Source of the DNA: Deltaproteobacteria bacterium
GTDB taxonomy: Bacteria; Myxococcota_A; Polyangia; Haliangiales; JADYYK01
Length of the DNA: 64,000 nt
Assembly: GCA_020853705.1 (NCBI GenBank)
Contig: JADYYK010000014.1
Span: 77,751-141,750 of the forward strand
Direction: 5' to 3'
The notes beneath the pieces are model-generated. The model saw only the letters and a list, made by a program, of their open reading frames with translations, was not told the origin of the DNA and made no database searches. The position numbers and the translations under genes are program-made. Within the stretch, counting starts at the first letter, position 1; each line of letters opens with the position of its first letter. This document shows, one piece after another, positions 4,938-21,975 of the stretch.

Positions 4938-7900
4938 GGCCGCGTACCTTTGATACTGCCTGGGGACTCAGGGGCTGCCTTGGGTGGGACGAACTTGGGG
5001 AACACGCCGGACTGCCGGCTGCTGCGACGCTCGGGCGGACCGTCCACCGGCAGCCGCACCGTGAAGCAGGTGCGACCTGGTACCGAATCGACCTCGATGC
5101 GTCCGCCATGCTTGTCCACGATCTTCTTGACGATACCGAGACCGAGCCCGGTGCCTTCGCCCTTGGGCTTGGTGGTGAAGAAGGGCTCGAAGATCCGCGG
5201 CAACACCGCTTCAGGGATGCCAGGTCCGTTGTCGATGATGTGCACCGCCACCTCGTTCAAGGCACCCTGGCCCTGACCGTCACCAACCCCTTGGGGGCCC
5301 ACCGTCTCGATCACGATCTCTCCCCGTCCTGCGAGGGCTTGCACTGCGTTATGGATGAGGTTGGTCCAGACCTGGTTGAGCTCATCGACATAGACCGGGA
5401 TCGCGGGCAGCTGCGAGAAGTTCCGTTTGACGACAATACCATACTTCAGCTCGTGATGCAGGATGACGAGGGTGTTTTCGATGCCGTCCCGGATGTCCAC
5501 CACCTCGATCTTGGCCTGATCGAGGTGCGTGTACGACTTCAGCGCACCCACGATCCTCGAGATCGACTTGATCGCGGTCCCGACCGAGGCAGCGTTCCGC
5601 ATCAGGTAGACATACTCCTCGAGGTAACCGACGAACGGCAGCAGGCCGAATTCGCGGAAGACCAGCAGCGGCTCCAGCAGCTCGGGGGCGCCGATCTCGG
5701 CCAGGGTGCGCGCCACCGCGGTGGCCTCCTGCGGCTGGATGCCGGCGGTCTGGGCCTGGGCGGTCAGCTCCCTGGTGATGCGGCGCACCTCGGTCGGGGT
5801 CGCCATCTTGCGCTGGGCGTCCACCATGCCGGGCACATAGCTGGCCAGCAGGCCGAAGAAGCGGCCGCGCAGCTCGGGCGGCACCGGCCGCTCGCCGATC
5901 TCGCGGGCGCGCTCGAGCAGGCGCGACACGTTGTGCGTCATGGTATCGGCGGCGCCGCGGATGGCGGCGCTGGGTGAGTTGATCTCGTGCGCCACGCCGG
6001 CCACCAGGGTGCCCAGACCCGCCATGCGCTCGGACAGCACCAGCTGTGACTGCGCCTCCTTGAGCTGCTCGAGGGCGCGCCCGAGCTCCTCGTTGGTGCG
6101 CGTCAGCTCGTGGGTGCGCTGCTTGACCTTCTCCTCCAGCTCACCCGAGAACGCGGTGACCTCCTCGTAAAGGCGCGCGTTCTCGATGGCCGCGGCGGCC
6201 TGGGTCGCGAAGGTCGACACCAGGCCCTCGTCGTCCTGCGACAGCGCCGGGGCGCCGGCGCTGCGCGCCACCACCAGCACGCCGAGCACGCGCTGCTTGA
6301 GCAAGAGCGGGATGGCCAGCGCCGAGCCGCCCAGGCTGGCCGCGCGGGCGGCGCCGCCGTGCAGCGGATCGGCGGCCAGGTCGACGATGCGCAGCGTCTT
6401 TCGTGAGGCTGCCGCCGAGAGGGCTGCGCTCTCCAGGCCGCGCGCGCGCACCGAGGCGCCGCCGGTGTCGGGCCCACGCGGGTGGCTGCGCGCCACCGCG
6501 GCGCGCACGGTGAGGCGGTCGGGTTCGCCGGGCGACACCGCAGCCATGCTGCCCGACAGGGTGCCCATCTTGACCCCGGGCAGCGAGCTGGCGGCGTCGA
6601 CCTTGCGCGTGGCGGTGCTGGGCTGCTCGGCCAGCCAGATGGCGCACAGCTCGCCGTCGCTGATCAGGCGCACGCCGGTCACGATCTTGTAGAGCACGTC
6701 GTCCAGGCCCAGGGTCGAGGACACCGCGCGACCGACCTCGTGCAGCGTCTCCAGCTCGCGCACACGCGCGGCCAGGCGCTGCTGGTTCTCCTTCAGGGAG
6801 GTCGTCATCTGCGAGAAGGCGCGCGCCAGGTCGCCGATCTCGTCGCCCTCGTCGACCCTCAGACGGTAGTCCAGGTCGCCTCGGGCGACGGCCACGGCGC
6901 CCTCGTGCAGGCGCGCGATGGGCCGCGTCAGGCGCCGCGACAGCAGGCCCGCGAGGGCGAGCGCGAACACGAAGGCGCCCGCCGCGCCCAGCACCAGCGA
7001 GCGCGCCGCCGCCGACTTGGCGCGCACCAGGGCGCCGCGCCCGACCGCGACGCCGATCATGCCGACCCGACGCTCCTTGAGGTCCTTGAGCGGGGCGTAG
7101 CCGACGGTGTACTCGAGGTCGCCGATCTCCTCCTTGGCGATGCGCACGCCGCCCGAGATGACGTCGCGCACGGTCTGCCTGGGAGGCGTGATGCCGGCCA
7201 GGCGCACGCCGTCGCGGGCCAGGAACGACGACGCCGCGGCGCGCGCCTCGGGGGCCCGGCCGGCGCTGGTCGGGATGGCGTGGATGAGGACGTCGAGGCC
7301 GAGGGCGCCCTTGATGCCGTCGGCGAAGTCGCCGTCGAGCGGCACCGTGAAGACCACGGTGCCGCGCAGCGCGAAGGTGTCGTCGATGACCGGGGCCGAG
7401 GCGCGGATGATGAGGCGGGTCTCGCGCTCGGGCACCGGGGCCTCACCCTGGCCGGAGCCGCCGGGGGGCACGGCGCCGCGCGGCACGACCATGCGCTCGG
7501 CGACCTCCAGGGTGACGCGCTGCTCGAAGTTGCGCGCGGTGGCGATGGGGCCGTCGGTGGTGCTGGCGGGCGGCGTCTCGAAGCCGGCGAAGCGGGCGTG
7601 GTCGCGCCCGATCTCGACCCGCGCCAGCAGGGTGCCGTCGGCGTCGGTGACCTCGACCAGGCCCGACGGCAGGCTGGGCTCCTCGCGGACCAGGATCTCG
7701 CGCACCAGCGCCGGATCGCGCGCCCCGGCGGCGCGCCCGAGGTCGCCCGAGCGCCCCAGCCGCACAGCGTGGCCGCCGATGGTCTGGACCTGGCGCAGCA
7801 CCAGGTTGACCGCGACCGACAGCGAGCGCGCGGTCTGCTCGCGCAGGCCCTCCTCCAGGCCCCGGAGCACCAGGCGCACCGCCACCGTCGCCGCCAGCAC

Positions 7901-7969
7901 GACCGGCAGCAGCGCCGCCAGCGACAGCGAGATGGCCAGCTTGTGCCGGAGCTTGAGCCACCTCAGCAT
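4934..7969 (-). CDS. Sensor histidine kinase (periplasmic domain-HAMP-GAF-HisKA-HATPase)
   Basis: 1011 aa. Two TM segments flank a roughly 300-aa extracytoplasmic region. HAMP region (RPIARLHEGAVAVARGDLDYRL...EIGDLARAFSQM). GAF-like region with an insertion. H-box AGVAHEINSPSAAI. ATP-binding motifs NLIHNAVQA, DNGPGIP and GTGLGLGIVKKIV. Confidence 0.93.
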   Translation of the reverse strand: MLRWLKLRHKLAISLSLAALLPVVLAATVAVRLVLRGLEEGLREQTARSLSVAVNLVLRQVQTIGGHAVRLGRSGDLGRAAGARDPALVREILVREEPSLPSGLVEVTDADGTLLARVEIGRDHARFAGFETPPASTTDGPIATARNFEQRVTLEVAERMVVPRGAVPPGGSGQGEAPVPERETRLIIRASAPVIDDTFALRGTVVFTVPLDGDFADGIKGALGLDVLIHAIPTSAGRAPEARAAASSFLARDGVRLAGITPPRQTVRDVISGGVRIAKEEIGDLEYTVGYAPLKDLKERRVGMIGVAVGRGALVRAKSAAARSLVLGAAGAFVFALALAGLLSRRLTRPIARLHEGAVAVARGDLDYRLRVDEGDEIGDLARAFSQMTTSLKENQQRLAARVRELETLHEVGRAVSSTLGLDDVLYKIVTGVRLISDGELCAIWLAEQPSTATRKVDAASSLPGVKMGTLSGSMAAVSPGEPDRLTVRAAVARSHPRGPDTGGASVRARGLESAALSAAASRKTLRIVDLAADPLHGGAARAASLGGSALAIPLLLKQRVLGVLVVARSAGAPALSQDDEGLVSTFATQAAAAIENARLYEEVTAFSGELEEKVKQRTHELTRTNEELGRALEQLKEAQSQLVLSERMAGLGTLVAGVAHEINSPSAAIRGAADTMTHNVSRLLERAREIGERPVPPELRGRFFGLLASYVPGMVDAQRKMATPTEVRRITRELTAQAQTAGIQPQEATAVARTLAEIGAPELLEPLLVFREFGLLPFVGYLEEYVYLMRNAASVGTAIKSISRIVGALKSYTHLDQAKIEVVDIRDGIENTLVILHHELKYGIVVKRNFSQLPAIPVYVDELNQVWTNLIHNAVQALAGRGEIVIETVGPQGVGDGQGQGALNEVAVHIIDNGPGIPEAVLPRIFEPFFTTKPKGEGTGLGLGIVKKIVDKHGGRIEVDSVPGRTCFTVRLPVDGPPERRSSRQSGVFPKFVPPKAAPESPGSIKGTRP

Positions 7970-7988
7970 GCCAGGGCGCCGGCTCCCG

Positions 7989-9572
7989 TCATCGGTTCAG
8001 CCACACGTCGCGGTAGTACACGATGGTCGACGGGTGCAGCTTGACGCCCTCGACGTCGTTGCGCGTTGCGATGGCGACCTCGCTGTGCGCCAGCGGGACC
8101 CAGGGCGCCTCGCGGGCGACGATCTCCTGCGCCAGACGGTAGTAGCCGGCGCGCTCCTCGAGCACGTTGGTGGTCTGGGCCCAGGTCAGCAGGCCATCGA
8201 GGCCAGGGTTCTGCAGGAAGGCCACGTTGCGCGCCGAGCCCGGTACCGCGTTGGCCGACGACAAGAGCACGTACATGAAGTTGTCGGGATCGCCGTTGTC
8301 ACCCGACCAGCCCAGCAGACACAGATCGTGCTCGCCGTTCTGGGTCGCGCGCAGGTGCTCTTCCATGTTGTTCTCGACGATGTCGAGCTGCACGCCGATC
8401 TCGGCCAGCTGGCGCCGGATCACGCGCGCGACCTGGGTCGGGTTGGGCAGGTACGGCCGCGGCGTGTTCATCACGTACAGGCGGAAGTGCTTGCTGAAGT
8501 CGAAGTTGACCGACTTCAGCTCGGCCGACGCCCGCGCCGGGTCGTAGGGGTAGTCCTCCACGGCGCCCCGGTCACCCAGCATGCCGGGCGGCAGCGGGCC
8601 GTAGGCGATGCGCCCGTTACCCTGGTAGTTGAGGCGCACGATGGGGTTCTTGTGGATGGCGCGGTTGACGGCGCGCCGCACGACGACGTCGTCGAACGGC
8701 GGGTGCTGCGTGTTCATGGCCAGGTAGGCCACGTTGTTGCCCGGGATGTGCAGCAGGCGCAGGTCAGGGTGCAGCGAGACGAACTGCAGCTCCTCGGGCA
8801 GGATGTTGTAGGCCACGTCGAGGGCGCCCGACTCCAGCGCCTTGAGGCGCTGGCGCGGATCGGGCAGCACGCGGAAGACCAGCCGCTTGAGCAGCGGTGC
8901 GCCGCCCCAGTAGCCGTCGTTCCGCTCCAGCACCACGCGGTCCCCCGGGAGCCAGGTCACGAAGCGGAACGGGCCGGTGCCCACCGGGGCGCGCTCGAAG
9001 CCGGCCAGCCCGAGGCGCTTCATCGCCGACGGCGACACGATGGAGGCCGGGAACATGGCCAGGTTGGCCAGGAACGGCGCGTAGCCCTTCTCGATGTCGA
9101 GGCGGACGGTCAGGCGATCGAGCTTCTCGATGCGCAGGATGTTGGCGTAAGTCGAGTGCCAGTACGAGTAGTCGGGCGAGAAGTACGGGTGATCCTCGCG
9201 CATCTGGCGCTCGAACGAGAACACCACGGCGTCGGCGTCGAGCGCGGTGCCGTCATGGAAGCGGACGCCGTCGCGCAGGTGGAAGGTCCACTGCCGGCCC
9301 GAGTCGGCGACCTCCCAGTGGGTGGCCAGATCGGGCTCGATCTCGTTGGAGTCGCGCTTGAAGCGCACCAGGTGCTCGAAGATCTGCTCGGTGACCTCGA
9401 TCGACTCGTTGTCGGAGCGCCGCGCCGGGTCGAGGCCGATGACGTCGGCCGGGCGCCCCACCAGCAAGGTCTGGGCGTCACCCGCCGAGCGCACCGACGA
9501 GCGCCCCCCCGAGCCCTCGACCCAGTCGCAGCCATGCGTGCTGGCGAGCACCACCAGTGACGCCAGGGCCAT
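7989..9572 (-). CDS. Family-5 (peptide/nickel, DppA/OppA-type) solute-binding protein; no cognate permease or ATPase genes nearby
   Basis: ORF 7989-9695. The internal ATG 9570-9572 gives a signal-like N-terminus MALASLVVLASTHGC. SBP_bac_5-type sequence GLDPARRSDNESIEVTEQIFEHLVRF...DLATHWEVADSGRQWTFHLRDGVRFHDG. Lies 19 nt upstream of the kinase gene. Confidence 0.85.
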   Translation of the reverse strand: MALASLVVLASTHGCDWVEGSGGRSSVRSAGDAQTLLVGRPADVIGLDPARRSDNESIEVTEQIFEHLVRFKRDSNEIEPDLATHWEVADSGRQWTFHLRDGVRFHDGTALDADAVVFSFERQMREDHPYFSPDYSYWHSTYANILRIEKLDRLTVRLDIEKGYAPFLANLAMFPASIVSPSAMKRLGLAGFERAPVGTGPFRFVTWLPGDRVVLERNDGYWGGAPLLKRLVFRVLPDPRQRLKALESGALDVAYNILPEELQFVSLHPDLRLLHIPGNNVAYLAMNTQHPPFDDVVVRRAVNRAIHKNPIVRLNYQGNGRIAYGPLPPGMLGDRGAVEDYPYDPARASAELKSVNFDFSKHFRLYVMNTPRPYLPNPTQVARVIRRQLAEIGVQLDIVENNMEEHLRATQNGEHDLCLLGWSGDNGDPDNFMYVLLSSANAVPGSARNVAFLQNPGLDGLLTWAQTTNVLEERAGYYRLAQEIVAREAPWVPLAHSEVAIATRNDVEGVKLHPSTIVYYRDVWLNR

Positions 9573-9764
9573 GTGCAGGGTTCGCACGCGCAGAATCTTA
9601 GCATCAATGCGAACTCCCAGGACCTCCCGCCACCGCCAGGCTGGCGGAAGGCGCCAGAGAACGCGCACGGCTTGCGCGCGCGCCGTGGCGGACACGCATC
9701 TGCTGCGCAGGCCTGGCCACCAGGCGCCCGTCCCGTGGGCCCTGCCCTTGCATTGACCTGGGCC

Positions 9765-10679: not shown

Positions 10680-11255
10680 TCAGCGCGCGGCCAGGGCGGC
10701 CGCGAGCAGGCGCTGGCCGGTGGCGACATCGGGCACCGGGACGCCGCACCGCACCGAGGCCTGGGTGGCGGGCAGCGCGACACAGTAGACCGTGCGCGCC
10801 GGGCGCAGATCGGGCGTCAAGGTCGCGATCCAGACGCTGCCATCCTGAGGGCCGGGGTACCGGCGCACGCCCTCGAGCTCGCGGCAGCCGACCCCCAGCT
10901 GGCACGACAGCGAGGCGCGCTCGAGCCCCGGCGGGCCGGCGGCGACGGTGAAGACGAGGTGCTCATGACCGACGCCGGAGCAGTCCGGGGTCCCGCTGGC
11001 CAGGGTGATGACGGCGTGCAAGTCCCCGGCGGCCAGGCAGCGCGCCAGCGCGGGGTCGACCGCCGGCGCGCCAGCGTCGACCGCCGCCACCGCGGGCTCG
11101 GGCGGGAGCGCGGGGCCAACGTCGGCGACCGGGCTCGGGCGCGTGCTGGCCAACGGCGCGTGCGCCGGCGCGCGGCGGCCGCCGCACCCGGCCGCCAGCA
11201 GCAGCCCCGCCAGCAGCCGCGCCAGCCAGCAGCCACGCCTCGACGAGGACGCCAT
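10680..11255 (-). CDS. Cys-rich lipoprotein, unknown function
   Basis: 191 aa. Lipobox LLLAAG/C. Seven further Cys residues. Starts 2 nt after the upstream gene's stop (11258). Confidence 0.65.
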   Translation of the reverse strand: MASSSRRGCWLARLLAGLLLAAGCGGRRAPAHAPLASTRPSPVADVGPALPPEPAVAAVDAGAPAVDPALARCLAAGDLHAVITLASGTPDCSGVGHEHLVFTVAAGPPGLERASLSCQLGVGCRELEGVRRYPGPQDGSVWIATLTPDLRPARTVYCVALPATQASVRCGVPVPDVATGQRLLAAALAAR

Positions 11256-11257
11256 GG

Positions 11258-14200
11258 CTACTTGCGACCCAGGGCGACCTCGCGCGCCTGCGCGGCGTCG
11301 ACGCCACGCACGAAGCGCGAGAAGGCCTCGTACTCGGTGCGCGGCACCCGGCGCAGCGGCATGCGCAGGCTCTGCGTCACCGTGAAGCTGCCGGCGCCGT
11401 CGGCCTTGACCGCCTGGGTGAACTTGCCGTAGGGGCCGTCGAGGCTGAGGGCGTCGGGGGCGCCGACCATGGCAACGCCCGGGGGCAGCGTGATCTTGGC
11501 GCTGACCTCCTCCAGCGGCAGATCATCGATGATGAGGTCGCGGGTGCGGCTGCCGACGCCGAGGTAGGCCTTGCCGAGGTCGGCGCCGTACAGCGCCAGC
11601 GAGAAGGCGATCCCGCCGCTGCGGCCAGGGCGCAGCAGCGAGGGCGCGTGGAAGCTGTAGCGCAGCACCAGCGCCGCGTTCACGTCCTTGCGGCCCTCGA
11701 TCTTCAGGGCGGTCAGCTCGGCGCCCGGGAAGTGGTAGCCCAGCACGCGCTGCTCGAACTGGCGCTCGACCTGATCGGGCGGGATCTGATCGAGGCCCTC
11801 GCGCCACTCCAGCGCGGGCACCCCGCGCAGGGTCTCGACCGCCTTGACCTCGGGCATGCCGCCGGCGCCGAAGCCGACCTCCAGCGTGATCGACCGGCGA
11901 TCATCGGTGTGCTCGCCGGCCGGGAGCTGCCCCCACAGCTGGGCCTGCGCGGTCGCCGCGGTGGAGGGGCTCGGCCCCGGCGCCACCAGCTTGAGCGCGG
12001 ACGCGCCGCGCAGCGCGGGCGGGATGAAGCCGAACGGGGCGCGCTTGTAGCGCAGCTCGGTGAAGACCGGGCCACCGGGCAGGTCGACGCGCAGGATGGC
12101 CTCGCTGGCCTCGTCGACCTCGGGCAGCCGGGGCGGCTCGTCGCCGGCCTGGCGCGGGCGGGCCAGCCAGATCTGGCTGCTGATGCCCTCGGCCGCCAGC
12201 AGCGCCGACAGCAGCACCACGCGGCTGCCGGCGCGCTCGGCCAGCACCTCGGCGGGCTCCATGCCCAGGCCCCCGCCGCCCTCGACGTTGCCGACCACCC
12301 AGTCGTACAGGGCGACCGCGCGCTCGCGCGGGGTCAGGGTGTGGCCGAGCTGCTTGCGCCGCGCCGCCACGATCTGGGCCGCGCGCTCGCGCACGCTGTG
12401 GTCGGCGCGCGCCGCGGCCCAGGCCTGCTGGCGCAGCATGCGGCGCCAGGCCTCCCAGGTGATGCGCGCATACGGCCGCGTCGACGCGATGACCTCGACG
12501 TTGGGCACCGAGGCCGGCTCCGACACCAGCTGCTTGCGCTGCACGTCGGCGAACATGACGTGGGTCTCGCCGTTCTCGCTGCGGGTGACCGGGCGCGGCG
12601 CGTCACCGCGCACGTCGTACAGCACCGCCAGCCCCTGTGGCGTGACGATGTCCATCTCGGTGCGATCGAGCGGCGCGTCGAAGGTGCCGAAGTAGAAGCG
12701 ATCACCGACGAAGCCGCCGCCGAAGGCGCCCAGCGGGGCGTCGGCCTCGATCCACTCGTACTCGACATAGTCGCCGATCTGCAGATCGGGCGCGCTGACG
12801 GCGTCCTTGTTGGCGATGTCCTCGGGCTCGCGAGTCGAGTAGTCGGGCTTGATGGTGCGCAGCTTGATGACGCGCGCTCCCGACGGGATGCGCACCTCGC
12901 CCCACTGATCGAGCCCCTCCTTGGCCAGCACCTGGATCACGTTGTGGGTCAGGGTCAGGCGCGCCCCGGTGGGGAAGATCTTGACCACGGTGCGATCGAG
13001 CAGGACGACGGCGGGGCCGCCATAGCTGCGCCCGCTGGCGAGGTAGCTCTTGATGACCTCGACGCCGTCGATGCGGTAGGCGTCCATCGGGCCGCCCTCG
13101 CCGAGGACCTCGCGCGCCGACCACAGCGCGGCGGCCTCGGGGGCCTGGGCCAGGCCGGCGTCGATGGCGGCCAGCGCCTGCTTGCGCTGCCCGGCGGCCA
13201 GCAGGGCGTCGACCCAGCTCAGGCGGCGGCTGACGTCGGTGGGGCGGCGCGCCACCGCGGCGCCGAGGTCACGCGCGGCGCCGGCGGCGTCGCCCTCGAC
13301 CAGGGACAGCTCGGCGCGCTCGACCGCGAGGGCGTCCTCGCTGAGGCCGGCGAGCGCCAGCCGCCCGAGCTCCCTGCGCGCGCCCGGGAAGTCGGCGCGC
13401 TTGCGCAGGACCGAGAGCAGGATGGCATCATAGGGGTCACAGCGCGTGACCGCCTCGGCGTGGGAAAGCTGCGCGGCGGCGTCGCGGTGCGCACCGGCCA
13501 GCGCGCTGAGCGCCTTCTCGACCGGGCAGCCGCCCGGGAAGACCCGCGCCGCCTCCAGCACCGCGGCGTCGGCCTCGCGCTGGAAGCCGCGCTCACGCAG
13601 GGCGCGAGCGTGCTCGAGGTGCAACGAGGCGGCGTCGGGCGCCAGCACCAGGGCGCGCTCCAGGCGGGCCAGCGCCTGGCGCGGGTTCTCGTCCTCGAGA
13701 TCCATCTGTGCCAGCGCCAGCAGGCCGCGGGCGCTGCCCGGCGAGGCCGCGACCAGGCGCGTGAAGTGCTCGCGTGCGCTGTCGCGGGCGGTGGTCCAGC
13801 CCACCACGCCAGCGCGCTCCAGCGCCAGCTGCGCGGCCAGGAAGCGCGCCGCCGCGAACGGCGTGCGCCCGAGCTGGTCACCCAGGCGCGCCACCGCGGG
13901 GCCGTCGTGATCACCGGCGCGGATCTCGGCGTGCACCGCCAGCAGCGCGGCCAGCGGGGCCAGCCGCGGTCCCGGGAAGCGCGCCGCCAGGGCGTCGAGC
14001 TCGGCCGGGCTGGCGCCCAGGGCCCTGGCGGCCCCGGCGCTGGCCTCGCGCGCGGGCGCCTGCTCGCCCGCACGCACCGTCAGCCCGGCCGGCGCGTGGC
14101 CGGTGGCCGGATCGAGGACGCCGATGCGGAAGGTCGACATCGAGCCGCGCGTCGCGGTGCGCAGGCGCAGCACGGTGGCGCCGGTCAAGGCGATGGGGAT

Positions 14201-15091
14201 GACCACGCGGCGCGGCAGGAAGCGCTCGCGCGACAGGTGGCGGTAGATCTCCTTGCCGCCGAGGTCGACGATGAAGGGCGCACGATCGACATCGTCGATC
14301 ATCAGAAGCATGGCGCCCTGACCCGTCAGCGTCGCGCTGGCGTGCAGCACGCCGGGCTCGCCGCTGGCGGGCGAGAGCCCCAGGCCACACAGCGTGGCCG
14401 TGATGTCGCGGGAGCCGGTCCTGGACTGCGCGGCCAGGGCCAGAGGAAGGTCCGCGCCCTCGTCGAGATCCAGCAGCGGCAGCGTCCCGAACGGCCCGCG
14501 CAGCTCCAGCGCGCGCACACAGCCACGCGCCTGCGACGTCGCCACCGCGCGCGCGAGGTCACCGGTGGCCTTCTCGAGGTCGACCGCGACGCCGGCCAGA
14601 TCCCAGGCCAGCTCGGGGGGCAGCGGCTGCGCCAGCAGCGCGCGCACCCGCGGCAGCAGCCCGGCGTCACCGGGCGCCTCGGCCAGGAGCTGCCCCAGCT
14701 CGGTCGCGGCCACACCCGCCAGCGCGGCGGCCACGGCGTCCGTGCGCGACAGCTCGAGCACACGCAGGAAGCGCTCGCGCGCGGGCGCGACGCGCAGCGC
14801 ATCCTGATCGGCCAGCGCGGCCCCGAACAGCGCCAGCGCGTCGTCCGGCCGCGCCTTCAGCGCCCGCGCGAAGGCCACCTCGGCCGCGGCCCGGTCGCCG
14901 CTCCACATCAGCTCCAGGAGCCCCAGCTCGGTGTCCCCCGCCGGCCCCTTCCTGACCAGCGCCGCGCGTTCCTGCGCGACATCGATGCTGGCCAGCGCCT
15001 CGGGCTGCACCAGCGTCCGCTTGCCCGCCCCACTCGCCGTCCCACACCCCGCCAGCACCACCACCAGCAGCAGCGCCAGCCCCCGTCCCAT
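11258..15091 (-). CDS. Giant TPR / transglutaminase-like-fold lipoprotein, Cys-less paralogue (predicted pseudoenzyme)
   Basis: ORF 11258-15241. ATG 15089-15091 is preceded by GAGGGGA and gives MGRGLALLLVVVLAG/C. The N-terminal third is Ala/Leu-rich and TPR-like. The remainder appears colinear with the upstream paralogue by eye, judged from the core-segment comparison. The core-equivalent segment ERAGSRVVLLSALLAAEG (about 12182-12240) lacks the catalytic Cys and His. Confidence 0.7.
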   Translation of the reverse strand: MGRGLALLLVVVLAGCGTASGAGKRTLVQPEALASIDVAQERAALVRKGPAGDTELGLLELMWSGDRAAAEVAFARALKARPDDALALFGAALADQDALRVAPARERFLRVLELSRTDAVAAALAGVAATELGQLLAEAPGDAGLLPRVRALLAQPLPPELAWDLAGVAVDLEKATGDLARAVATSQARGCVRALELRGPFGTLPLLDLDEGADLPLALAAQSRTGSRDITATLCGLGLSPASGEPGVLHASATLTGQGAMLLMIDDVDRAPFIVDLGGKEIYRHLSRERFLPRRVVIPIALTGATVLRLRTATRGSMSTFRIGVLDPATGHAPAGLTVRAGEQAPAREASAGAARALGASPAELDALAARFPGPRLAPLAALLAVHAEIRAGDHDGPAVARLGDQLGRTPFAAARFLAAQLALERAGVVGWTTARDSAREHFTRLVAASPGSARGLLALAQMDLEDENPRQALARLERALVLAPDAASLHLEHARALRERGFQREADAAVLEAARVFPGGCPVEKALSALAGAHRDAAAQLSHAEAVTRCDPYDAILLSVLRKRADFPGARRELGRLALAGLSEDALAVERAELSLVEGDAAGAARDLGAAVARRPTDVSRRLSWVDALLAAGQRKQALAAIDAGLAQAPEAAALWSAREVLGEGGPMDAYRIDGVEVIKSYLASGRSYGGPAVVLLDRTVVKIFPTGARLTLTHNVIQVLAKEGLDQWGEVRIPSGARVIKLRTIKPDYSTREPEDIANKDAVSAPDLQIGDYVEYEWIEADAPLGAFGGGFVGDRFYFGTFDAPLDRTEMDIVTPQGLAVLYDVRGDAPRPVTRSENGETHVMFADVQRKQLVSEPASVPNVEVIASTRPYARITWEAWRRMLRQQAWAAARADHSVRERAAQIVAARRKQLGHTLTPRERAVALYDWVVGNVEGGGGLGMEPAEVLAERAGSRVVLLSALLAAEGISSQIWLARPRQAGDEPPRLPEVDEASEAILRVDLPGGPVFTELRYKRAPFGFIPPALRGASALKLVAPGPSPSTAATAQAQLWGQLPAGEHTDDRRSITLEVGFGAGGMPEVKAVETLRGVPALEWREGLDQIPPDQVERQFEQRVLGYHFPGAELTALKIEGRKDVNAALVLRYSFHAPSLLRPGRSGGIAFSLALYGADLGKAYLGVGSRTRDLIIDDLPLEEVSAKITLPPGVAMVGAPDALSLDGPYGKFTQAVKADGAGSFTVTQSLRMPLRRVPRTEYEAFSRFVRGVDAAQAREVALGRK

Positions 15092-15123
15092 TCCCCTCTT
15101 CTCCGTCTCCGCCATTGCCATCG

Positions 15124-15151
15124 CCTGTTGCCTGTCGCCTGTCACCTGTCG
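15124..15151. repeat. Tandem heptamer array (CCTGTYR)x4 in an intercistronic spacer
   Basis: cctgttg cctgtcg cctgtca cctgtcg read directly, in the 92-nt gap between the two giant paralogues. A 7-nt period is incompatible with coding. Confidence 0.9.
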
Positions 15152-15183
15152 CCGGTTTCCCTTCCCGATCCCCACCCGGCCGC

Positions 15184-18100
15184 TCACTGCGCCACCACCA
15201 CGATGCGCTGGTTCAACGCCGCATCCACGCTCAGCAGCCACTTCCTGAACTCCGGGTAGTCCTTCTTCGCGATCCTCTCCTTCACGATCGACAGCGTGTA
15301 GCTGACCACCACCTTGCCGGGCTGATCACCCACCACGCGCAGCGTGAAGAAGCCGAAATCGCTGTTGAGCTTGCTCTCCTTGGGCAGCGCACCCGCGCGC
15401 GTGCCCAGCGGCAGCCGGAACGTCAGCTCCTCCTCCTGCTCCCAGGGGAAGTCGAGCACCAGGTCATACTTGCGCGACGACAGCCGGGCGTAGCCGCGCG
15501 CGAACTCGCTCTCGCGCGCGCTGGCCAGCGCCGTCCACGCCGCGCCGTCGCGGGTCAGCATGGTCGGCACCACCACCTTGGCGGTGGCGCGGATCGGCTG
15601 CTCCAGATCCTCCAGCGTGGGCAGCAGGGCCGACTCGGCGCGGCTGCCCGGGTGCCAGGCGTTCCAGACCTGCTCGTAGCGCTCGCGGCGCTCGTCCTTG
15701 CTCTGGTAGTAGCTGCGCCAGGTCGCGGCCTGCTGCCCGGTGACCTCGACACTCTCGGCGACCTCGGCGCCGCCCGCGCCGTCACCCTCGACCGCCAGCG
15801 TGATGTCCAGCTTGCGCGCGGTGCGGTTCTTGTTTGCGCCATACACCGGCGTCTTGGTCAGGCGCGCGCCGCCCTTCTGATCGACCACCAGCACGGTGGC
15901 GCCCTGATCCTGCGCCGGCAGCTCGTAGGAGCCCGAGAACTCCGCGGTGCCGTCGAGGTAGAGGTCGAACTTGGGCACATACGCGATGGCGTGGTCGAAC
16001 ACCGCCAGGCTGGCCGGCTCGATGGCGATGTCGCCGTTGCGCCGCGTGCGCACGATGACCAGGTGGGCCTCGATCCCGACCTCGCCCAGCAGCGCCACGA
16101 TCAGCGACGCCTTGTCCTTGCAGTCGCCGAACTTGCGCTGGAACACCTGGGTGACCCGGTACGGCTTCCAGCCGTGGATGCCGAACTCCAGCGCGATGTA
16201 GCGGGTCGACTTCACCGCCAGCGAGTGGATCGCCTTCATCTTGGCCAGATCGTCGCCGGCCGGGATGCCGGCCACCGCGGCGCGCGCGGCCGCGCGCAGG
16301 GCGTCGTCGGTGGTCAGCTGATCCTTGACCAGGCCCCACCACCAGCGCCCGACGTCCTCCCAGCTCTTGTAGGTCGACACGTGCAGGTAGGGCGTGATCT
16401 CGGTCGCCCCGGGCGCCGCCGGCTCGTCGAGCAGGCGCGCGGTGTCGAAGGCGCGGAAGCGGTAGATCCGCTGCTCGCCCTGGACGTCCACGGTGGCCTG
16501 GAGGCCGGGCAGCCTGGGCTGGTTGAAGTAGAAGCTCCGATCGCGCGGCGTCACCAGCACGATGTCGGTCTCGGCGCGGCGCATGCGCTCGGCCAGGTAG
16601 GTGACGTCGCCGAAGTAGTCGTTGAACAGGTTGCGGCGCCCGACATCGGACACCACGTACTCCAGCTCGATGACGTCGCCGACCTGCAGCGAGCTCCACT
16701 CGAACGCCACCGCGCGATAGTCGTAGTACATGTTGTACCAGGGCTCGCTGATGGTGCGCTCGCCGCGCCCCGAGGCCTCGACGATGGCGCCCGTCGGCTT
16801 GTGCACGCGCGCCGCCAGCACGTCGACGCTCTGGGTGTCGGGCGTGAACGAGATCGACTGCTCCATCAGGGCGTCGCGCCCGGTGTCGTCGAGCACCTTG
16901 ATCAGGCGCTGGTGATAGACCTCCGACAGCCCGTTCTCGTGCACCCGCGTGACCTGGGCGTCGAGCAGCACCACGCCGGGCTCGCCGGCCGGGGCCAGCT
17001 TGGAGTGCTTCTTGATGATGGCCGCGGGGTCGCGCCCGTACAGCTTCTCGAGCCCCTTGTCCTGGGTCGGATCGACCAGCGCCAGGTACTGGCGCAGCGG
17101 CGGGTTCTGCGGCCGAAGCTCCAGCGCGCGCACCAGGCGCGCGATCCCGGCCGCGCGGTCGCCCTTCTGGATCAGCAGGCGTCCGGCGCGCTCGTGCAGG
17201 CCGGCGTCCTCGGGCAGCGTCTGCTGGGTGGCGTCGACCGCCGCCACGGCGTCGCCCAGCTTGCCGGCGTCCTCCAGCGCGGAGGCCTTGGCCAGCGTCA
17301 GCGCGCTCGAGCCCGGGCGCAGCGCCAGCGCGCGATCCAGCCAGGCCACGCCCTCGGCGACCTCGCCCCGCTCGAAGGCCAGCTCGGAGGCCTGGGCGTA
17401 CAGGTTGACCTCGTCGGCGTGGGTCGGCAGCAGCGCCTCCAGCGCGGTGCGCGCGCGCGCGGGCCGACCGAGGTCGCGCGCCAGCTCCAGCACCAGCCGG
17501 GTCGGCTCGCTGCGCCCCGCCGGCGCGCTCAGCGCCTCCAGCGCCTCGGCCTGCGCCAGCGCGAAGGCGGTCAGGCCGTGCGCCGCCACGGCACGGATCA
17601 GCGCCATGCGCGCCCCCAGCACGCTGCCGGCGTCGGCCCCGGCGCCGCCCGCACGCCCCGCACGTTCAATGGCGGCGCGCCAGGCGTCCTCGGCCAGGCG
17701 GTCGCGCCCGGCGGCCTGGTAGGCGTGGCCGAGCGCGATCTCGGCGCGCACCCAGGTGGCGTCATCCTTGGCCGCGGCGGCGTCATCGGCCGCGTGCTGC
17801 AGCTCGCCGCGACGCTGGTTGGCGTCCTCGATGACCCCGGCCAGCGCGATGCGATAGCCAGCGCGCACCGGATGCGCAGGATCGGGAGGCACCGCCAGCT
17901 GCACCGCCTGGGTCAGCGCGGCCCGCGCGGTCTCCGCGGTGCGATCATCCGGCGCCACCTCGGACAGGTACTCGCCGAGGTCGGCCCACAGCGCCGCCTG
18001 CTTGGCCCCGGCGCCGCGGGTGCGCGCGCGCAGAAGCTCGCCCAGCTCGCGCAGCTTGCCCGCGAGCGGCTTGCCCGGCGCCTGCGCGCGCTCCAGCCCG

Positions 18101-19116
18101 ACCACCGCGCCGAGCTCGCTGGCCGGCCGCGCCCCCGCCGGCAGATCATCGATCTGCGTCACGCCGCCCCAGGCCTGCTCCAGCACCAGCGGCGCGCCCT
18201 CGGGCGTGGTCAGCCGCAGCCGGAACAGCCAGGCGTCCTCCAGCGCCGAGGCCTTGACCAGGATCGAGTTCCAGCCCTTGTCGAGCCGGGCCAGGCCAGC
18301 GTCCTGATCGAACCCCAGCGGCCGGTACACGTCGCGCGACAGCACCAGCGCGCGGTTGACCCACACCTTCAGCGCGCCCGCCGACCCGGTGCGCACCGCG
18401 ATGGTGCGCGCCTTGTCCGACTTCACATAGGCGCGGGCGTAGCCGACCACGTTCTCGTCGGGGCGCAAGGTGGCGTCGAACGACACCAGGCCGTCGATCA
18501 CGGGCAGGCCATAGCGCCGCCACGCGACCATGCGCTCCTTGCCGCGCTGCTCGCCCTGGCTCTCGTCGCCGACGCGGGTCTCCGGCGGGTACGGCGTGTC
18601 ATGGCCGCCGCGGCCCTCGTTGTCGAAGGGGCCGATGATCGACCACTCGGTGACCAGGCCGAGCGCCTTCTGCAGCGCCGCGCCGCGGGCCCGATCGCCC
18701 AGCCGCTCGGCGGCCCGCATCAGCAGGAAGCTCGCGTGCGCCGCCACCAGGGCGTCCTTGTCGCGCGCGCCCGCTTCCAGCAGCGCCACCACGCGCGCCG
18801 GCGCGACCTCGTCCCACAGGTCCAGCGCACCCAGGATCGCGGTCACCGCCTCGGGCTTGCCGGCGCGCGCGCGCAGCGCGGCCTGGCGCGGGGTCACCGC
18901 GTCGACCGCCGCCGCCGCTGGCCCAGGTGTGGCTACCCGGGCTGGCGCCCTCGCCGGTGCCGGCGCGGGCGCCGGAGCTGCGGCCGCTGGTGCGGCGCTG
19001 GCCGCGCGCTGCCCGTACGTCAGGCCCAGCAGCAGCGCGATCCCCGCGCCCCCCACCACCACACGGAACCACTTCGCTGTCGCCATCGGCCTGGGCCTCT
19101 GCATGTGCGGGTTCAT
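15184..19116 (-). CDS. Giant TPR / transglutaminase-like lipoprotein or secreted protein with intact Cys-His-Asp-type core
   Basis: ORF 15184-19194. Candidate starts are ATG 19116, 19104 and 19086, followed by the signal peptide MATAKWFRVVVGGAGIALLLGL. Core FGDCKDKASLIVALLGEVGIEAHLV (Cys codon 16120-16122) with downstream FDHAIAYV and YLDGT. TPR-like repeats lie in the N-terminal third. Confidence 0.75.
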   Translation of the reverse strand: MNPHMQRPRPMATAKWFRVVVGGAGIALLLGLTYGQRAASAAPAAAAPAPAPAPARAPARVATPGPAAAAVDAVTPRQAALRARAGKPEAVTAILGALDLWDEVAPARVVALLEAGARDKDALVAAHASFLLMRAAERLGDRARGAALQKALGLVTEWSIIGPFDNEGRGGHDTPYPPETRVGDESQGEQRGKERMVAWRRYGLPVIDGLVSFDATLRPDENVVGYARAYVKSDKARTIAVRTGSAGALKVWVNRALVLSRDVYRPLGFDQDAGLARLDKGWNSILVKASALEDAWLFRLRLTTPEGAPLVLEQAWGGVTQIDDLPAGARPASELGAVVGLERAQAPGKPLAGKLRELGELLRARTRGAGAKQAALWADLGEYLSEVAPDDRTAETARAALTQAVQLAVPPDPAHPVRAGYRIALAGVIEDANQRRGELQHAADDAAAAKDDATWVRAEIALGHAYQAAGRDRLAEDAWRAAIERAGRAGGAGADAGSVLGARMALIRAVAAHGLTAFALAQAEALEALSAPAGRSEPTRLVLELARDLGRPARARTALEALLPTHADEVNLYAQASELAFERGEVAEGVAWLDRALALRPGSSALTLAKASALEDAGKLGDAVAAVDATQQTLPEDAGLHERAGRLLIQKGDRAAGIARLVRALELRPQNPPLRQYLALVDPTQDKGLEKLYGRDPAAIIKKHSKLAPAGEPGVVLLDAQVTRVHENGLSEVYHQRLIKVLDDTGRDALMEQSISFTPDTQSVDVLAARVHKPTGAIVEASGRGERTISEPWYNMYYDYRAVAFEWSSLQVGDVIELEYVVSDVGRRNLFNDYFGDVTYLAERMRRAETDIVLVTPRDRSFYFNQPRLPGLQATVDVQGEQRIYRFRAFDTARLLDEPAAPGATEITPYLHVSTYKSWEDVGRWWWGLVKDQLTTDDALRAAARAAVAGIPAGDDLAKMKAIHSLAVKSTRYIALEFGIHGWKPYRVTQVFQRKFGDCKDKASLIVALLGEVGIEAHLVIVRTRRNGDIAIEPASLAVFDHAIAYVPKFDLYLDGTAEFSGSYELPAQDQGATVLVVDQKGGARLTKTPVYGANKNRTARKLDITLAVEGDGAGGAEVAESVEVTGQQAATWRSYYQSKDERRERYEQVWNAWHPGSRAESALLPTLEDLEQPIRATAKVVVPTMLTRDGAAWTALASARESEFARGYARLSSRKYDLVLDFPWEQEEELTFRLPLGTRAGALPKESKLNSDFGFFTLRVVGDQPGKVVVSYTLSIVKERIAKKDYPEFRKWLLSVDAALNQRIVVVAQ

Positions 19117-19185: not shown

Positions 19186-19230
19186 CTTGCGCAAGGCATG
19201 CCGTCAGCCCTCGCCTCGGAGCCGTCACCC

Positions 19231-20157
19231 ATGGGGATTCGCCACGTCAGGAACTGCTGTCTCGTGCTGGCGGCCGTCGCCGCCGCTACCGCCGCCGGTT
19301 GCAAGGGGTTCAACGAGAACATCGCGATCCCCACCACCGCCGGCATCCTCGAGGGCTCCATCGCCCTCAACCAGGAGGCCGACCTCGATCTGATCCGGGC
19401 GGCCGCGCCGGCCTCGCTGAAGACGGTCGAGTCGTTCCTGATGGCGCGGCCCGATCAGCCCATCCTGCTGCGTCTGGTCGCGCAGGGCTACTGTGAGTAC
19501 GGCCAGGGCTTCCTGGAGGATGACCTCGAACAGGCCAATGATCGAGGCGACGAGGTCGCGGCCAAGAACCTGACCCGCCGCGCCACCAACGCCTACATCC
19601 GCTGCATGAACTACGGCATGCGCATGATCGGTGAGAAGAAGTGGCGCAAGGCCGTGGCCGGCGATCTGGCCGGCTTCGAGAAGGCCCTCAAGTCGACTGG
19701 CAGGGGCGACGTGCCCGGCCTCTTCTTCATGGGCCTCGGCCTGGCCTCGGCCATCAACATCAACCGCGACAACTACGAGCTGCTGACGCACCTGCCCAAG
19801 GTCGAGAGGGTGATGCTGCGCATCGTCAAGCTCAACGAGAAGTTCTTCAACGGTGGCGCGCACCTGGTGCTGGGCTCGCTGTACTCGTCGCAGGGCGCCG
19901 CGGTGGGCGGCAAGCCCGAGGAGGGCCTGAAGCACCTCCAGGCTGCCATCGCCATCGCGAAGGGCCGATTCCTGCTGCATAAAGTGATCTTGGCCCGCGT
20001 CTACGCCGTCACCAAGGGTGACCAGGCACTGTTCGAGAAGACCATCAAGGAGGTCCTACGCGCCAGGCCCGACATCTGGCCTGAGTACAGGCTCGCCAAC
20101 GAGATCGCGAAGCACAAGGCGCGGCGCTACTGGAAGACGCGGAAGGACCTGTTCTAA
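19231..20157 (+). CDS. tatT: TRAP-transporter-associated TPR lipoprotein, TatT family
   Basis: ATG 19231 gives MGIRHVRNCCLVLAAVAAATAAG/C. TatT-family C-terminal sequence FFNGGAHLVLGSLYSSQGAAVGGKPEEGLKHLQAAIAI...LLHKVILARVYAV...EYRLANEIAKHKARRYW. Sits directly upstream of dctPQM. Confidence 0.82.
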   Translation: MGIRHVRNCCLVLAAVAAATAAGCKGFNENIAIPTTAGILEGSIALNQEADLDLIRAAAPASLKTVESFLMARPDQPILLRLVAQGYCEYGQGFLEDDLEQANDRGDEVAAKNLTRRATNAYIRCMNYGMRMIGEKKWRKAVAGDLAGFEKALKSTGRGDVPGLFFMGLGLASAININRDNYELLTHLPKVERVMLRIVKLNEKFFNGGAHLVLGSLYSSQGAAVGGKPEEGLKHLQAAIAIAKGRFLLHKVILARVYAVTKGDQALFEKTIKEVLRARPDIWPEYRLANEIAKHKARRYWKTRKDLF

Positions 20158-20210
20158 CCCTGCCAGTGAACGAGGCCCGGCCTCGGTCAGCCCCGGTAAA
20201 GGAGACTTCG

Positions 20211-21236
20211 ATGCGCGTTTCGAGTTCGCTTCGTGTTGGTGTGGTGGCGGCGTCGCTCGGCCTGCTGGCGAGCGCGGCCTCGGCCGAGGATGTGACCATC
20301 AAGTTCGCGACCCTGGCGCCCGACGGCTCGTCATGGATGAAGCTGCTCAAGGGCGCGGCCAAGGATCTGGCGCTCAAGACGGCCGAGGTCACCAGTGGCA
20401 AGATGACCGTCAAGATCAAGTACTTCACCGGCGGCTCGGCCGGTGACGAGAAGGACGCCATCCGCAAGATCCGCGGCGGCCAGCTCGACGGCGCCGCGGT
20501 CACCGCGGTCGGCCTGGGCATGATCCAGCCCGAGGTGCGGGTGCAGGAGCTGCCCGGCGTGCTGACCGCCGGCAACAACAAGCAGCTCGACTGTGTGCGC
20601 AACAAGCTGGCGCCCGACTTCGAGAAGAAGTTCTACGAGAAGGGCTACGTCCTGCTGGGCTGGGGCGACGTCGGCCCGGTGCACATCTTCACCAACGTCG
20701 AGTTCAAGAGCCTGGCCGACCTCAAGAAGGGGAAGTTCTGGGCCTGGACCGACGACGACATCATCCGTGAGTTCATCAAGAAGATGAAGTTGAACGGCGA
20801 GCCGCTGGGCGTCCCCGGCGTGCTGCCCGCGCTGCAGACCGGCAAGATCGACTCGATCTACGCCTCGCCGCTCGCGACCGTGGCGCTGCAGTGGTACACC
20901 AAGGTCAAGTACATGTCGAAGGCGCCCATCGGCGTCGCCATCGGCGCCATGATCATCCGCAAGGAGTCCTTCGAGAAGCTGCCCCCGGAGGTCCAGACCG
21001 TGATGCGCGACAACGCCAAGGCCGTCGCGGTCAAGCTCAAGGACACCGTGCGCAAGGACAACGACAAGGCCATCAAGGCCATGGTCAAGGGCGGCATCAA
21101 GATGATCGACATCCCCGCCGACATCACCGCCGCCATCAAGACCGCGGGCGACGAGGTCTCCGGCGCGCTGGTGCCCAAGCTGTTCTCGAAGGAGCTGCTC
21201 GACAAGGTCAAGGCGACCGCCGCCGGCTGCAAGTAG
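20211..21236 (+). CDS. dctP: TRAP transporter substrate-binding protein (DctP family)
   Basis: AAAGGAG lies 7 nt before ATG 20211. Signal peptide MRVSSSLRVGVVAASLGLLASAASA/ED. DctP-like sequence IKFATLAPDGSSWMK... Confidence 0.85.
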   Translation: MRVSSSLRVGVVAASLGLLASAASAEDVTIKFATLAPDGSSWMKLLKGAAKDLALKTAEVTSGKMTVKIKYFTGGSAGDEKDAIRKIRGGQLDGAAVTAVGLGMIQPEVRVQELPGVLTAGNNKQLDCVRNKLAPDFEKKFYEKGYVLLGWGDVGPVHIFTNVEFKSLADLKKGKFWAWTDDDIIREFIKKMKLNGEPLGVPGVLPALQTGKIDSIYASPLATVALQWYTKVKYMSKAPIGVAIGAMIIRKESFEKLPPEVQTVMRDNAKAVAVKLKDTVRKDNDKAIKAMVKGGIKMIDIPADITAAIKTAGDEVSGALVPKLFSKELLDKVKATAAGCK

Positions 21237-21303
21237 CGCTTCAAGCTCACCACACCACGGCCACGGCCCCGCCCGGGGCCAGAGGGGCGAAGGGCAAGAC
21301 GCG

Positions 21304-21975
21304 ATGGCCACAACCGACTCGAAGTCGGCAGCACAGTCGTCCCCCCAGCAAAAGCCCGGCCCCATCGAGCCACTCGAGCGCGTCGACAAGCTGATCGGCC
21401 AGGGCGAAGGCGTGGTCCTGGTCAGCGCGCTGGCCTTCCTCGTCGTGCTGGGCTTTTACCGCAGCCTGTTCGAGTCGACCAAGAAGTGGTTCGGCCACCC
21501 GGTCCTGATGGAGCCGCCGGAGTGGACCACACCCACCATCCTGCTGCTGGTCTTCATGGTCGGCATGCTCGGCCTGGCGCTGGCGGCACAGGCCGACAAG
21601 CTCATCAACATCGACCTGTTCTCGCGCGTGCTCGGCGCCCGGGCCAAGCTGGTCATCCGCATCATCGGCAACAGCTTCGGCTGCATCATCAGCTACTTCT
21701 TCATCCGCACTGCCCTGCACCTGCGCAGCGTCCTCGACGACACCTCGACCGCGCGCAAGCTGCTCTCGGACAAGACCACGCAGCTGGTCATCCCGCTGAC
21801 CGTCGGCCTCGTCATCCTGCACCTGGTGGTCAAGATCGTGATCGACGTGGTCTGGCTGGCCAGCGGCAAGACCCCGCCCGAGAGCGCCCCCGGGGGCGCC
21901 CACGGCGGCGCCGCCAAGCCCGAAGCGCCCGCGGCTGACGCCGCCGCCGACGACAAGGGCGGAGGTGCGGCATGA
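21304..21975 (+). CDS. dctQ: TRAP transporter small permease (DctQ-like)
   Basis: 223 aa with four hydrophobic helices. ATGA overlap with dctM. Positioned between dctP and dctM. A weak GC hairpin (21265-21280) precedes it. Confidence 0.75.
   Translation: MATTDSKSAAQSSPQQKPGPIEPLERVDKLIGQGEGVVLVSALAFLVVLGFYRSLFESTKKWFGHPVLMEPPEWTTPTILLLVFMVGMLGLALAAQADKLINIDLFSRVLGARAKLVIRIIGNSFGCIISYFFIRTALHLRSVLDDTSTARKLLSDKTTQLVIPLTVGLVILHLVVKIVIDVVWLASGKTPPESAPGGAHGGAAKPEAPAADAAADDKGGGAA

Follow-up and report, generated by a model that had tools for sequence, protein, structure and literature searches.

Can a transglutaminase-like enzyme and a degenerate copy of it, encoded side by side, form one conserved unit of the bacterial cell envelope, and does the small lipoprotein gene that follows them belong to that unit? 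This question is raised by a locus on contig JADYYK010000014.1 of a Deltaproteobacteria bacterium (GCA_020853705.1), within a stretch of 64,000 nucleotides (nt; G+C content about 72%) to which we refer as the window. Three genes lie there head to tail on the minus strand and are called A, B and C (all identified as open reading frames, ORFs, and by their translations; sizes in amino acids, aa):

15184-19116, minus strand: gene A, 1310 aa
11258-15121, minus strand: gene B, 1287 aa
10680-11255, minus strand: gene C, 191 aa

A preliminary description had seen in them a lipoprotein operon with two adjacent proteins of about 1300 aa, an active and an inactive paralogue, plus a small partner. We find that A and B are homologous over their full length, that the catalytic triad is kept in A and lost in B, that the two genes stand side by side throughout the phylum and that their products carry different export signals. 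With moderate confidence we propose that A, a secreted cysteine hydrolase or transamidase, works together with its pseudoenzyme paralogue B, by which it would be tethered or regulated, in a conserved envelope module. The two large proteins were correctly described as an active/inactive pair; the third gene has to be judged differently.

Two paralogues and one catalytic triad

From its sequence, A is predicted to be a transglutaminase-like (TGc) enzyme that is secreted and has kept its whole Cys-His-Asp triad. Its domain order runs from a signal peptide through a helical region, a PA14-like beta-sandwich and a TPR superhelix to DUF3857, the transglutaminase core and DUF3858:

18994-19116, minus strand: signal peptide, residues 1-41, ending in ...GLTYGQRAASA and followed by AP (read from the sequence)
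18157-18657, minus strand: PA14-like or galactose-binding-like beta-sandwich, about residues 154-320 (AlphaFold2, Foldseek)
17038-18123, minus strand: TPR superhelix, about residues 332-693 (AlphaFold2, Foldseek, weak Pfam TPR matches)
16441-16935, minus strand: DUF3857, residues 728-892 (Pfam PF12969, 89.6 bits, E 3e-25)
15937-16263, minus strand: transglutaminase-like catalytic core, residues 952-1060 (Pfam PF01841)
15202-15480, minus strand: DUF3858-like C-terminal domain, residues 1213-1305 (Pfam PF12970, 24.7 bits)

The search with transglutaminase-like and DUF3857/DUF3858 models that had been proposed as a check gave matches to all three in A. Transglut_core (31.4 bits against a cutoff of 23, E 2.4e-7) and DUF3857 (cutoff 24.6) exceed their gathering scores, DUF3858 (E 2.7e-5) falls just below its cutoff of 27, and the DUF3857 region also aligns to the PDB entry 3KD4. 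The three motifs by which a papain-like core had been recognized in A are present as described. FGDCKDKAS occupies residues 996-1004 and contains Cys999 (codon 16120-16122, as previously given), FDHAIAYV holds His1042 (codon 15991-15993) and YLDGT holds Asp1055 (codon 15952-15954). These residues follow the canonical order of the triad and are invariant in 45/45 A orthologues, among which 179 of the 1310 positions are at least 90% conserved. Cys999 is the sole cysteine among the 1310 residues of A. In A orthologues the number of cysteines is typically odd (median 3), in keeping with a single free catalytic thiol in A, and four is the most frequent number in mature B orthologues.

B is best described, by its sequence, as a lipoprotein and a full-length paralogue of A that has lost both the catalytic cysteine and the catalytic histidine. 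Lipoproteins were recognized here by pattern reading, as signal peptides ending in [LVI][ASTVI][GAS]C. The relevant features of B are:

15044-15055, minus strand: lipobox L-A-G-C (VLAGC) with Cys26 (read from the sequence)
12002-12301, minus strand: degenerate TGc core, about residues 941-1040 (alignment to A)
12206-12232, minus strand: AGSRVVLLS, which replaces FGDCKDKAS (alignment)
12086-12115, minus strand: DEASEAILRV, which replaces FDHAIAYV (alignment)

The loss of Cys and His, claimed before, is confirmed by the BLASTP alignment, in which FGDCKDKAS stands opposite AG---SRVV and FDHAIAYV opposite DEASEAIL, and by Pfam, which returns no Transglut_core match in B at E values up to 1. Both replacement segments had been placed at about 12182-12240; this holds for AGSRVVLLS, while DEASEAILRV lies outside that range. 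The other Pfam matches of B, DUF3857 (18.2 bits, E 2.7e-3) and DUF3858 (14.2 bits, E 0.05), are weak and below cutoff; several B orthologues pass the DUF3857 cutoff, and an orphan B-like protein in locus L064 reaches 31.6 bits for DUF3858 (cutoff 27). Besides the lipobox cysteine B contains four others.

The homology of A and B over the core had been named beforehand as a test, and it extends well beyond that core. BLASTP aligns residues 569-1307 of A with residues 595-1284 of B (24% identity over 776 aa, E 2e-21), and an hhalign comparison of profiles built from 73 A-type and 7 B-type sequences gives a probability of 100% and an E value of 4.7e-83 over 1064 aligned columns. This profile alignment spans the N-terminal beta-sandwich with its GPF motif and the TPR region and continues to the C terminus, so that A and B are full-length paralogues which share more than a common core. 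When the last 620 residues are compared with A of the window, identity is 39-51% for A-type proteins and only 18-22% for B-type proteins, and the two types appear from these comparisons to be two ancient lineages. They differ consistently at the following sites:

Cys site: RYVGLEFGIHGxKPYRVxQVxxRxFGDCKDKASL in A-type; G-[SND]-[RP] with a 3-residue deletion in B-type
His site: PASLAVFDHAIxYVP in A-type; His replaced by E, Y, D, M or R in B-type
Asp site: DLxLDGT in A-type; variable in B-type
LEFGIHG segment: present in A-type; absent from B-type
14-residue insert EPWYxxYYDxRA in DUF3857: present in A-type; absent from B-type

Every pair examined is split in this way into an A-type member that keeps the triad and a B-type member that has lost it.

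Could B have retained activity by means of a relocated or alternative nucleophile, for instance the serine of its G-S-R motif? Active-site migrations are known from papain-like and transglutaminase-like families (PMC10318531), and B of the window does have a serine beside a conserved glycine. Among the B orthologues, however, this position is occupied by S, N or D, and LEFGIHG together with three residues of the Cys site is deleted in all B-type proteins. A shifted triad, which would have spoken against the pseudoenzyme assignment, is not seen in the conservation across 49 B orthologues: residues 940-1060 of B contain no Cys, Ser or His that reaches 90% conservation, and the only conserved positions there are W941, V942, G965, R967, R988, R1026 and R1038. 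B is thus predicted to have neither a shifted nucleophile nor a shifted base, and we give a catalytically active B almost no credence. At the same time its sequence is clearly still constrained. Across the 49 orthologues 74 positions are at least 90% conserved, among them the B-specific H726, K758, D760, E765 and GDYVExE (783-789), and two conserved cysteine pairs, C201/C245 and C532/C561, look like disulfides.

The N-terminal third of A had been described as TPR-like. This has to be corrected, since that third comprises the helical region and a beta-sandwich, and the TPR superhelix makes up the middle third (about 332-693). AlphaFold2 models of A were calculated from a shallow alignment that left out the locus-derived sequences. 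The model of residues 70-700 (predicted local distance difference test, pLDDT, 85; predicted template-modelling score, pTM, 0.83) contains the helical region, the beta-sandwich and a solenoid of about 20 paired helices with pLDDT values mostly above 90. Foldseek matches the solenoid to the TPR domain of O-GlcNAc transferase (OGT) and to CTPR superhelices (E about 1e-9), and the individual Pfam TPR matches in A remain below their cutoffs; on the strength of the model, residues ~332-693 are predicted to form a TPR superhelix. Some candidate assignments were rejected as TPR-only likeness, namely PrsT (TIGR02917; 34.6 and 32.3 bits against a cutoff of 312), the gliding protein GltE (NF033758; 12.6 bits against 225) and the NCBIfam models for LapB, PilW and a C39 peptidase, all far under their cutoffs.

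The beta-sandwich was modelled separately (pLDDT 85), since the multi-domain N-terminal model had returned TPR matches only in the fold search. The top PDB matches of residues 150-335 are PA14 lectin domains, with E values of 1e-5 to 1e-4; the sandwich best resembles Cea1A, the PA14 domain of the Marinomonas ice-binding adhesin MpIBP, Flo/Epa adhesins and the N-terminal domain of GH2 enzymes. The PA14/galactose-binding-like systems are sugar-binding beta-sandwiches, to which A is similar by predicted fold only and with moderate scores (E 1e-5 to 1e-3, TM score 0.42-0.47, identity 13-15%). The sandwich is nevertheless among the most conserved parts of A, with GPFDNxGxxG (GPFDNEG in the window), E179, W199-R200, R218-P219, Y264-R265, D270, N283, K288 and R301.

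Conservation of the pair and the place of gene C

Side-by-side A and B proteins were first found in a close relative (L003), in a metagenome-assembled genome (MAG) of the Polyangia (L005), in L006 and in a JGI metagenome (L001). A scan with the B-type alignment against one genome per species then yielded 68 loci, labelled nearly without exception as Myxococcales, Polyangia, Polyangiales, Sandaracinaceae, Myxococcota or "delta proteobacterium"; the exceptional labels are three Pseudomonadota, one "uncultured bacterium" and one Chloroflexota. In the last of these (L053, JBHOMX010000007.1) the contig that carries the pair is 322 kb long and was assigned to a MAG labelled Candidatus Brachytrichaceae. 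Because the locus has a G+C content of 72.5% and its A is 50-54% identical to A proteins of the Polyangiales and Sandaracinus type, the contig is probably myxobacterial and was mis-binned. Among named genera, related proteins come from Anaeromyxobacter paludicola (A-type) and, as fragments, from MAGs of Labilithrix and Sandaracinus.

Nine of the 68 loci end before the region upstream of B. Where enough upstream sequence is available, the gene that immediately precedes B in the same orientation is of the A type (recognized by the motif GDC[KD]D) in 56/58 loci; L064 and L066 are the two exceptions, with a B-like gene and no A. The distance from the A stop to the lipobox cysteine of B has a median of 51 nt, and with a signal peptide of 15-25 residues this means that the B start usually abuts or overlaps the A stop; 4-nt overlaps are annotated in L003, L006 and L078. 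The arrangement is retained in three divergent pairs (L079, L080 on a Tara Oceans scaffold, and L081), whose A-type proteins are 25-28% identical to A of the window and are followed, again with a 4-nt overlap, by a Cys-less partner of 1212-1247 aa. One MAG harbours two pairs (L027 and L060). The genes around the pair are not conserved, the 140 nearest flanking ORFs belonging to 121 Pfam families. The adjacency is therefore not simply residual synteny and appears to be kept by selection on the pair itself, and the sequence data argue that A-B is an ancient conserved two-gene module and not a decaying duplicate. In L078 (8416-12310, on an 8.0-Mb contig of GCA_963853155.1) A is called as two ORFs of 534 aa and 769 aa that overlap by 20 nt, which is probably due to a frameshift, real or from sequencing.

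Export signals follow the same division. A has an ordinary cleavable signal peptide without a lipobox cysteine and, by pattern reading, is not a lipoprotein, and its orthologues have cleavable signal peptides of the AxA type; most B orthologues carry a lipobox cysteine. Of the supposed lipoprotein operon, B (VLAGC) and C (LAAGC) are thus lipoproteins and A is not. The proposed envelope location is supported by the export signals on all three proteins.

In the window, the gap between the A stop and the likely B starts measures 60-92 nt. The true start of B is uncertain, the candidates being GTG 15187, which overlaps the A stop as GTGA, ATG 15121, and ATG 15091, which is preceded by GGAGAAGAGG. 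The third-codon-position G+C of A, B and C is 0.94-0.95. No terminator-like site was seen in a scan of the coding strand of A-B-C, though promoter and terminator scans are uninformative in DNA of 72% G+C. With short gaps and no such site, nothing in the sequence contradicts co-transcription of A, B and C in the window, and C may indeed be transcribed together with the pair.

Is C then the third component of the system? Its features are:

11184-11195, minus strand: lipobox AAGC (LAAGC) of gene C (pattern reading)
10965-10988, minus strand: PDCSGVGH motif of gene C (read from the sequence)

C was correctly described as a 191-aa Cys-rich lipoprotein (lipobox, 8 Cys) that begins 2 nt after the B stop (TAG CC ATG), on the same strand and with no terminator-like site on that strand, and in the closest relatives a C homologue lies no more than 1.5 kb from B. 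These points favour a three-component system with C as functional partner. No Pfam or NCBIfam model matches C or its family, which comprises 25 representative clusters of about 105-350 aa (mostly 150-215), most of them lipoproteins, with the common motifs PDCSG[VI]GH and CVxLPA and invariant D-C-S-G and C-V-x-x-P.

The distribution of this family argues against a conserved partnership. When all A-B loci were searched by tblastn and with a family hidden Markov model (HMM), a C homologue was found beside the pair only in the closest relatives of the window; the HMM gave one marginal match elsewhere (L018, E 0.008). The survey that had been suggested for A, B and C together thus finds A and B in company and C not conserved with them. 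The closest relatives (about 93% nt identity) are represented by three independent assemblies with about 93-95% identity in A and B (L003, L075, L078), and in all of them C lies 1.5 kb after B, behind an opposite-strand ORF of 463-491 aa:

L003 13870-15261, minus strand: ORF between B and C
L075 5295-6767, minus strand: ORF between B and C
L078 16182-17573, minus strand: ORF between B and C

This ORF has a high third-position G+C, matches no Pfam or NCBIfam model and is missing from the window. It marks an insertion or deletion of about 1.7 kb by which the 5' end of C was exchanged as well. The alignment of C with its homologues in the close relatives is confined to the C-terminal 129 residues (70% identity), and the first 66 residues differ. 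Since C of the relatives stands 1.5 kb away behind an ORF, the 2-nt junction of B and C is, judging from these sequences, a recent rearrangement in the lineage of the window. In addition, C-family genes are found in two metagenome loci, L076 and L077, with no A-B within 8 kb. C is probably a lineage-specific small lipoprotein outside the mechanism; as a conserved three-gene system the proposal is already largely refuted, and we consider it very unlikely.

A possible envelope module

Only one solved structure is related to the pair by sequence. PDB searches with A alone or with a profile of the whole A family gave TPR matches only or were swamped by them, and a profile of the C-terminal module was needed to find 3KD4 (E 3e-22), BDI_1141 of Parabacteroides distasonis, which was deposited as a "putative protease" without an assigned function. 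The match covers the DUF3857/core region and the C-terminal domain (the latter with E 2.6e-6), and in their C-terminal 620 residues A and B show DUF3857, core and DUF3858 in the same order as 3KD4. Unlike this 506-aa protein, A and B add about 690 N-terminal residues with the helical region, the PA14-like sandwich and the TPR superhelix. At about residues 280-300 of chain A, 3KD4 reads SAYG-TPL-EIAQLL where the A family reads RxFG-DCK-DKASLL, that is, G-T-P versus G-D-C; by this alignment the solved "putative protease" may itself lack the nucleophile. In a literature search we found no functional study of DUF3857, DUF3858, 3KD4 or myxobacterial transglutaminase-like lipoproteins, DUF3857 being mentioned in passing only, and the papers returned do not mention a conserved transglutaminase-like enzyme/pseudoenzyme gene pair.

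The closest functional precedents are periplasmic. LapG is a transglutaminase-like protease that cleaves and thereby releases the adhesin LapA (PMC3032545), and HvyA, a transglutaminase-like protein of 272 aa, needs its Cys, His and Asp to block capsulation in Caulobacter (PMC4241560). Like these bacterial transglutaminase-like cysteine proteinases (BTLCP), A carries a Sec export signal, belongs to the same fold superfamily and has a Cys-His-Asp triad. However, BTLCPs are small single-domain proteins without DUF3857/DUF3858, TPR or lectin-like modules and without a paralogous pseudoenzyme partner. Peptidase_C93 (PF06035) matches neither A nor B at E values up to 1, so that A would be related to LapG and HvyA at the level of the superfamily and not as a family member. 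For B, an analogy exists in eukaryotes, where this fold superfamily has repeatedly given rise to inactive paralogues with a binding or scaffold role, such as Rad4/XPC relative to PNGase and EPB42 relative to the transglutaminases (PMC10318531). They share the fold superfamily, but are not co-encoded or co-translated with their active counterparts and have unrelated architectures; the comparison is an analogy only.

A different kind of precedent is provided by systems such as NlpI-Prc and BepA, in which a periplasmic protease is recruited to envelope substrates by a TPR module that sits in some cases on a lipoprotein adaptor. They differ from the A-B pair in their catalytic class (serine or metallo-proteases), are unrelated to it in sequence and use an adaptor that is not paralogous to the enzyme.

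Taken together, A would be exported by the Sec pathway as a soluble protein with a PA14-like sandwich, a TPR superhelix and a catalytic module. B, usually translationally coupled to A and built in the same domain order, would be a lipoprotein in most lineages. The two may assemble as a membrane-associated heteromeric complex, probably at the outer membrane, in which B would tether and/or regulate A or present the substrate to it. On a substrate of the envelope or cell surface, which may be recognized via the TPR groove and the lectin-like domain, A would then hydrolyse or transamidate an amide bond of the peptide or isopeptide type.

Several observations weigh against this proposal. Solitary Cys-less B-like proteins of about 1280 aa without an adjacent A are encoded in L062 (7946-11791; Myxococcales) and in L064 (7931-11770) and L066 (7904-11764), both labelled Myxococcaceae. 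They have DUF3857 with or without DUF3858 and lack the transglutaminase core, and because of them B-type proteins may also work alone. Conversely, a distant A-type protein in L082 has no partner. B of the divergent pairs L079 and L080 is without a lipobox, which means that membrane tethering by B is not universal. The lectin-like assignment itself rests on moderate fold scores, and Pfam PA14 (PF07691) gives no match. Finally, in the assembly of one close relative A and B are found on different contigs. L002 (about 93% DNA identity to the window) ceases to resemble the window near the B start, at about position 15118, and continues with cytochrome genes; L007, a 4.9-kb contig of the same assembly, begins at B. 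This split reflects either an assembly break or a rearrangement, not the absence of B, and L002 was therefore set aside as a case of A without B.

The solitary genes lend some weight to a scenario in which A and B share ancestry and an operon without forming a complex, A acting alone and B being an independent non-catalytic binder (a surface receptor, adhesin or scaffold) that would use its own beta-sandwich and TPR modules. The conserved residues peculiar to B (H726, K758, D760, E765, GDYVExE and the cysteine pairs), which are not copied from A, would suit this scenario as well. Yet the adjacency in nearly all loci, the frequent 4-nt overlaps and the lack of any other conserved neighbour are the usual signature of stoichiometric partners, and we regard an independent B as unlikely. 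A further alternative concerns the chemistry only: A could be a true cross-linking transglutaminase of matrix, spore-coat or surface proteins and not a hydrolase. The name of the Pfam family, Transglut_core, is in line with this, and a Cys-His-Asp triad allows both reaction directions, as has been discussed for BTLCP (PMC4241560); the characterised periplasmic relative LapG, in contrast, is a protease (PMC3032545). The sequence of A does not distinguish a hydrolase from a cross-linker, and we rate the cross-linker as a minority option, somewhat less doubtful than an independent B. The coupled pair of a secreted hydrolase or transamidase with its pseudoenzyme remains the reading we prefer.

Neighbouring genes and implications

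All-against-all clustering and a Pfam census of the 140 flanking ORFs revealed no conserved third partner of A and B. The commonest Pfam families among these neighbours are UbiA (7/140) and HAD phosphatases (5/140). A gene for a UbiA-family prenyltransferase lies near the pair in 17/56 A-B loci of several clades, mostly divergently upstream of A, and immediately so in five loci (L035, L036, L037, L042, L050). Among the NCBIfam models, decaprenyl-phosphate phosphoribosyltransferase matches it best, with a score (210 bits) slightly below the cutoff (234). Genes of polysaccharide metabolism are seen next to divergent pairs: in L081 (neighbours at 185-3366) a glycosyltransferase gene shares 4 nt with the start of A and a Polysacc_synt flippase-type gene is found beside it, and L079 is flanked by UDP-glucose dehydrogenase-type and sugar nucleotidyltransferase genes (956-2293, 16136-17410). 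Together with the lectin-like domain, these UbiA and polysaccharide neighbours hint at a glycan-bearing substrate.

In the window itself the surroundings of A-B-C are as follows:

19198-23906, divergent, 5' of A: TRAP transporter operon (TAtT, DctP, DctQ, DctM)
23956-24924, plus strand: UbiA-family prenyltransferase gene, after the TRAP operon
25018-28512, plus strand: GGDEF/Ser-Thr-kinase fusion gene, next to the UbiA gene
downstream of C, convergent: PEBP gene
3867-9695, minus strand, beyond the PEBP gene: operon of SBP_bac_5, HAMP-GAF sensor kinase and response-regulator-GGDEF genes

The SBP_bac_5/sensor kinase operon (with or without the response-regulator-GGDEF gene), 0.2-5.8 kb downstream of the pair, is also found downstream in other loci of the clade to which the window belongs (L003, L005, L008, L011, L012, L013, L026, L052 and L055), and in L008 it follows B after only 192 nt; this may be a clade-specific regulatory link or plain synteny. 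A GGDEF and kinase fusion is located near the pair in 11 loci besides the window. Ser/Thr kinase genes recur by the pair in L022 (6764-8008), L025 (2635-5268) and L017 (3393-5867), and in L022 and L025 a kinase gene for 825-878 aa ends 4 nt before A.

A more far-reaching reading would have A and B as an obligate heterocomplex throughout the Myxococcota, responsible for an envelope reaction so far undescribed, the substrate of which would be glycosylated or linked to a glycan. Both proteins may then clamp this substrate with their lectin-like and TPR modules while the single free cysteine of A cuts or forms an amide bond, and the reaction would be coupled to a glycan pathway of the polyprenyl-phosphate-pentose type (UbiA/HAD). 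We offer this as a speculation that is more likely wrong than right by a wide measure, less credible than either a cross-linking A or an independent B. If true, a surface polymer would be controlled here in the manner of PNGase or HvyA, and the link to polyprenyl-phosphate sugars (UbiA/HAD) would point to a new step in how surface glycans or glycoproteins are handled.

What is new here is the architecture of A, which combines lectin-like, TPR and catalytic modules, and the unit of study, which consists of two genes and not three. The DUF3857/DUF3858 family has a solved structure, and the pair gives a handle on its function, with a single cysteine in A and a clean two-gene unit. In cell-envelope biology, it is a repeated observation that a catalytic protein is tethered or activated by a paralogous pseudoenzyme. 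The A-B pair would add to these cases an example with a transglutaminase fold, in a phylum that is known for complex surfaces, motility and development.

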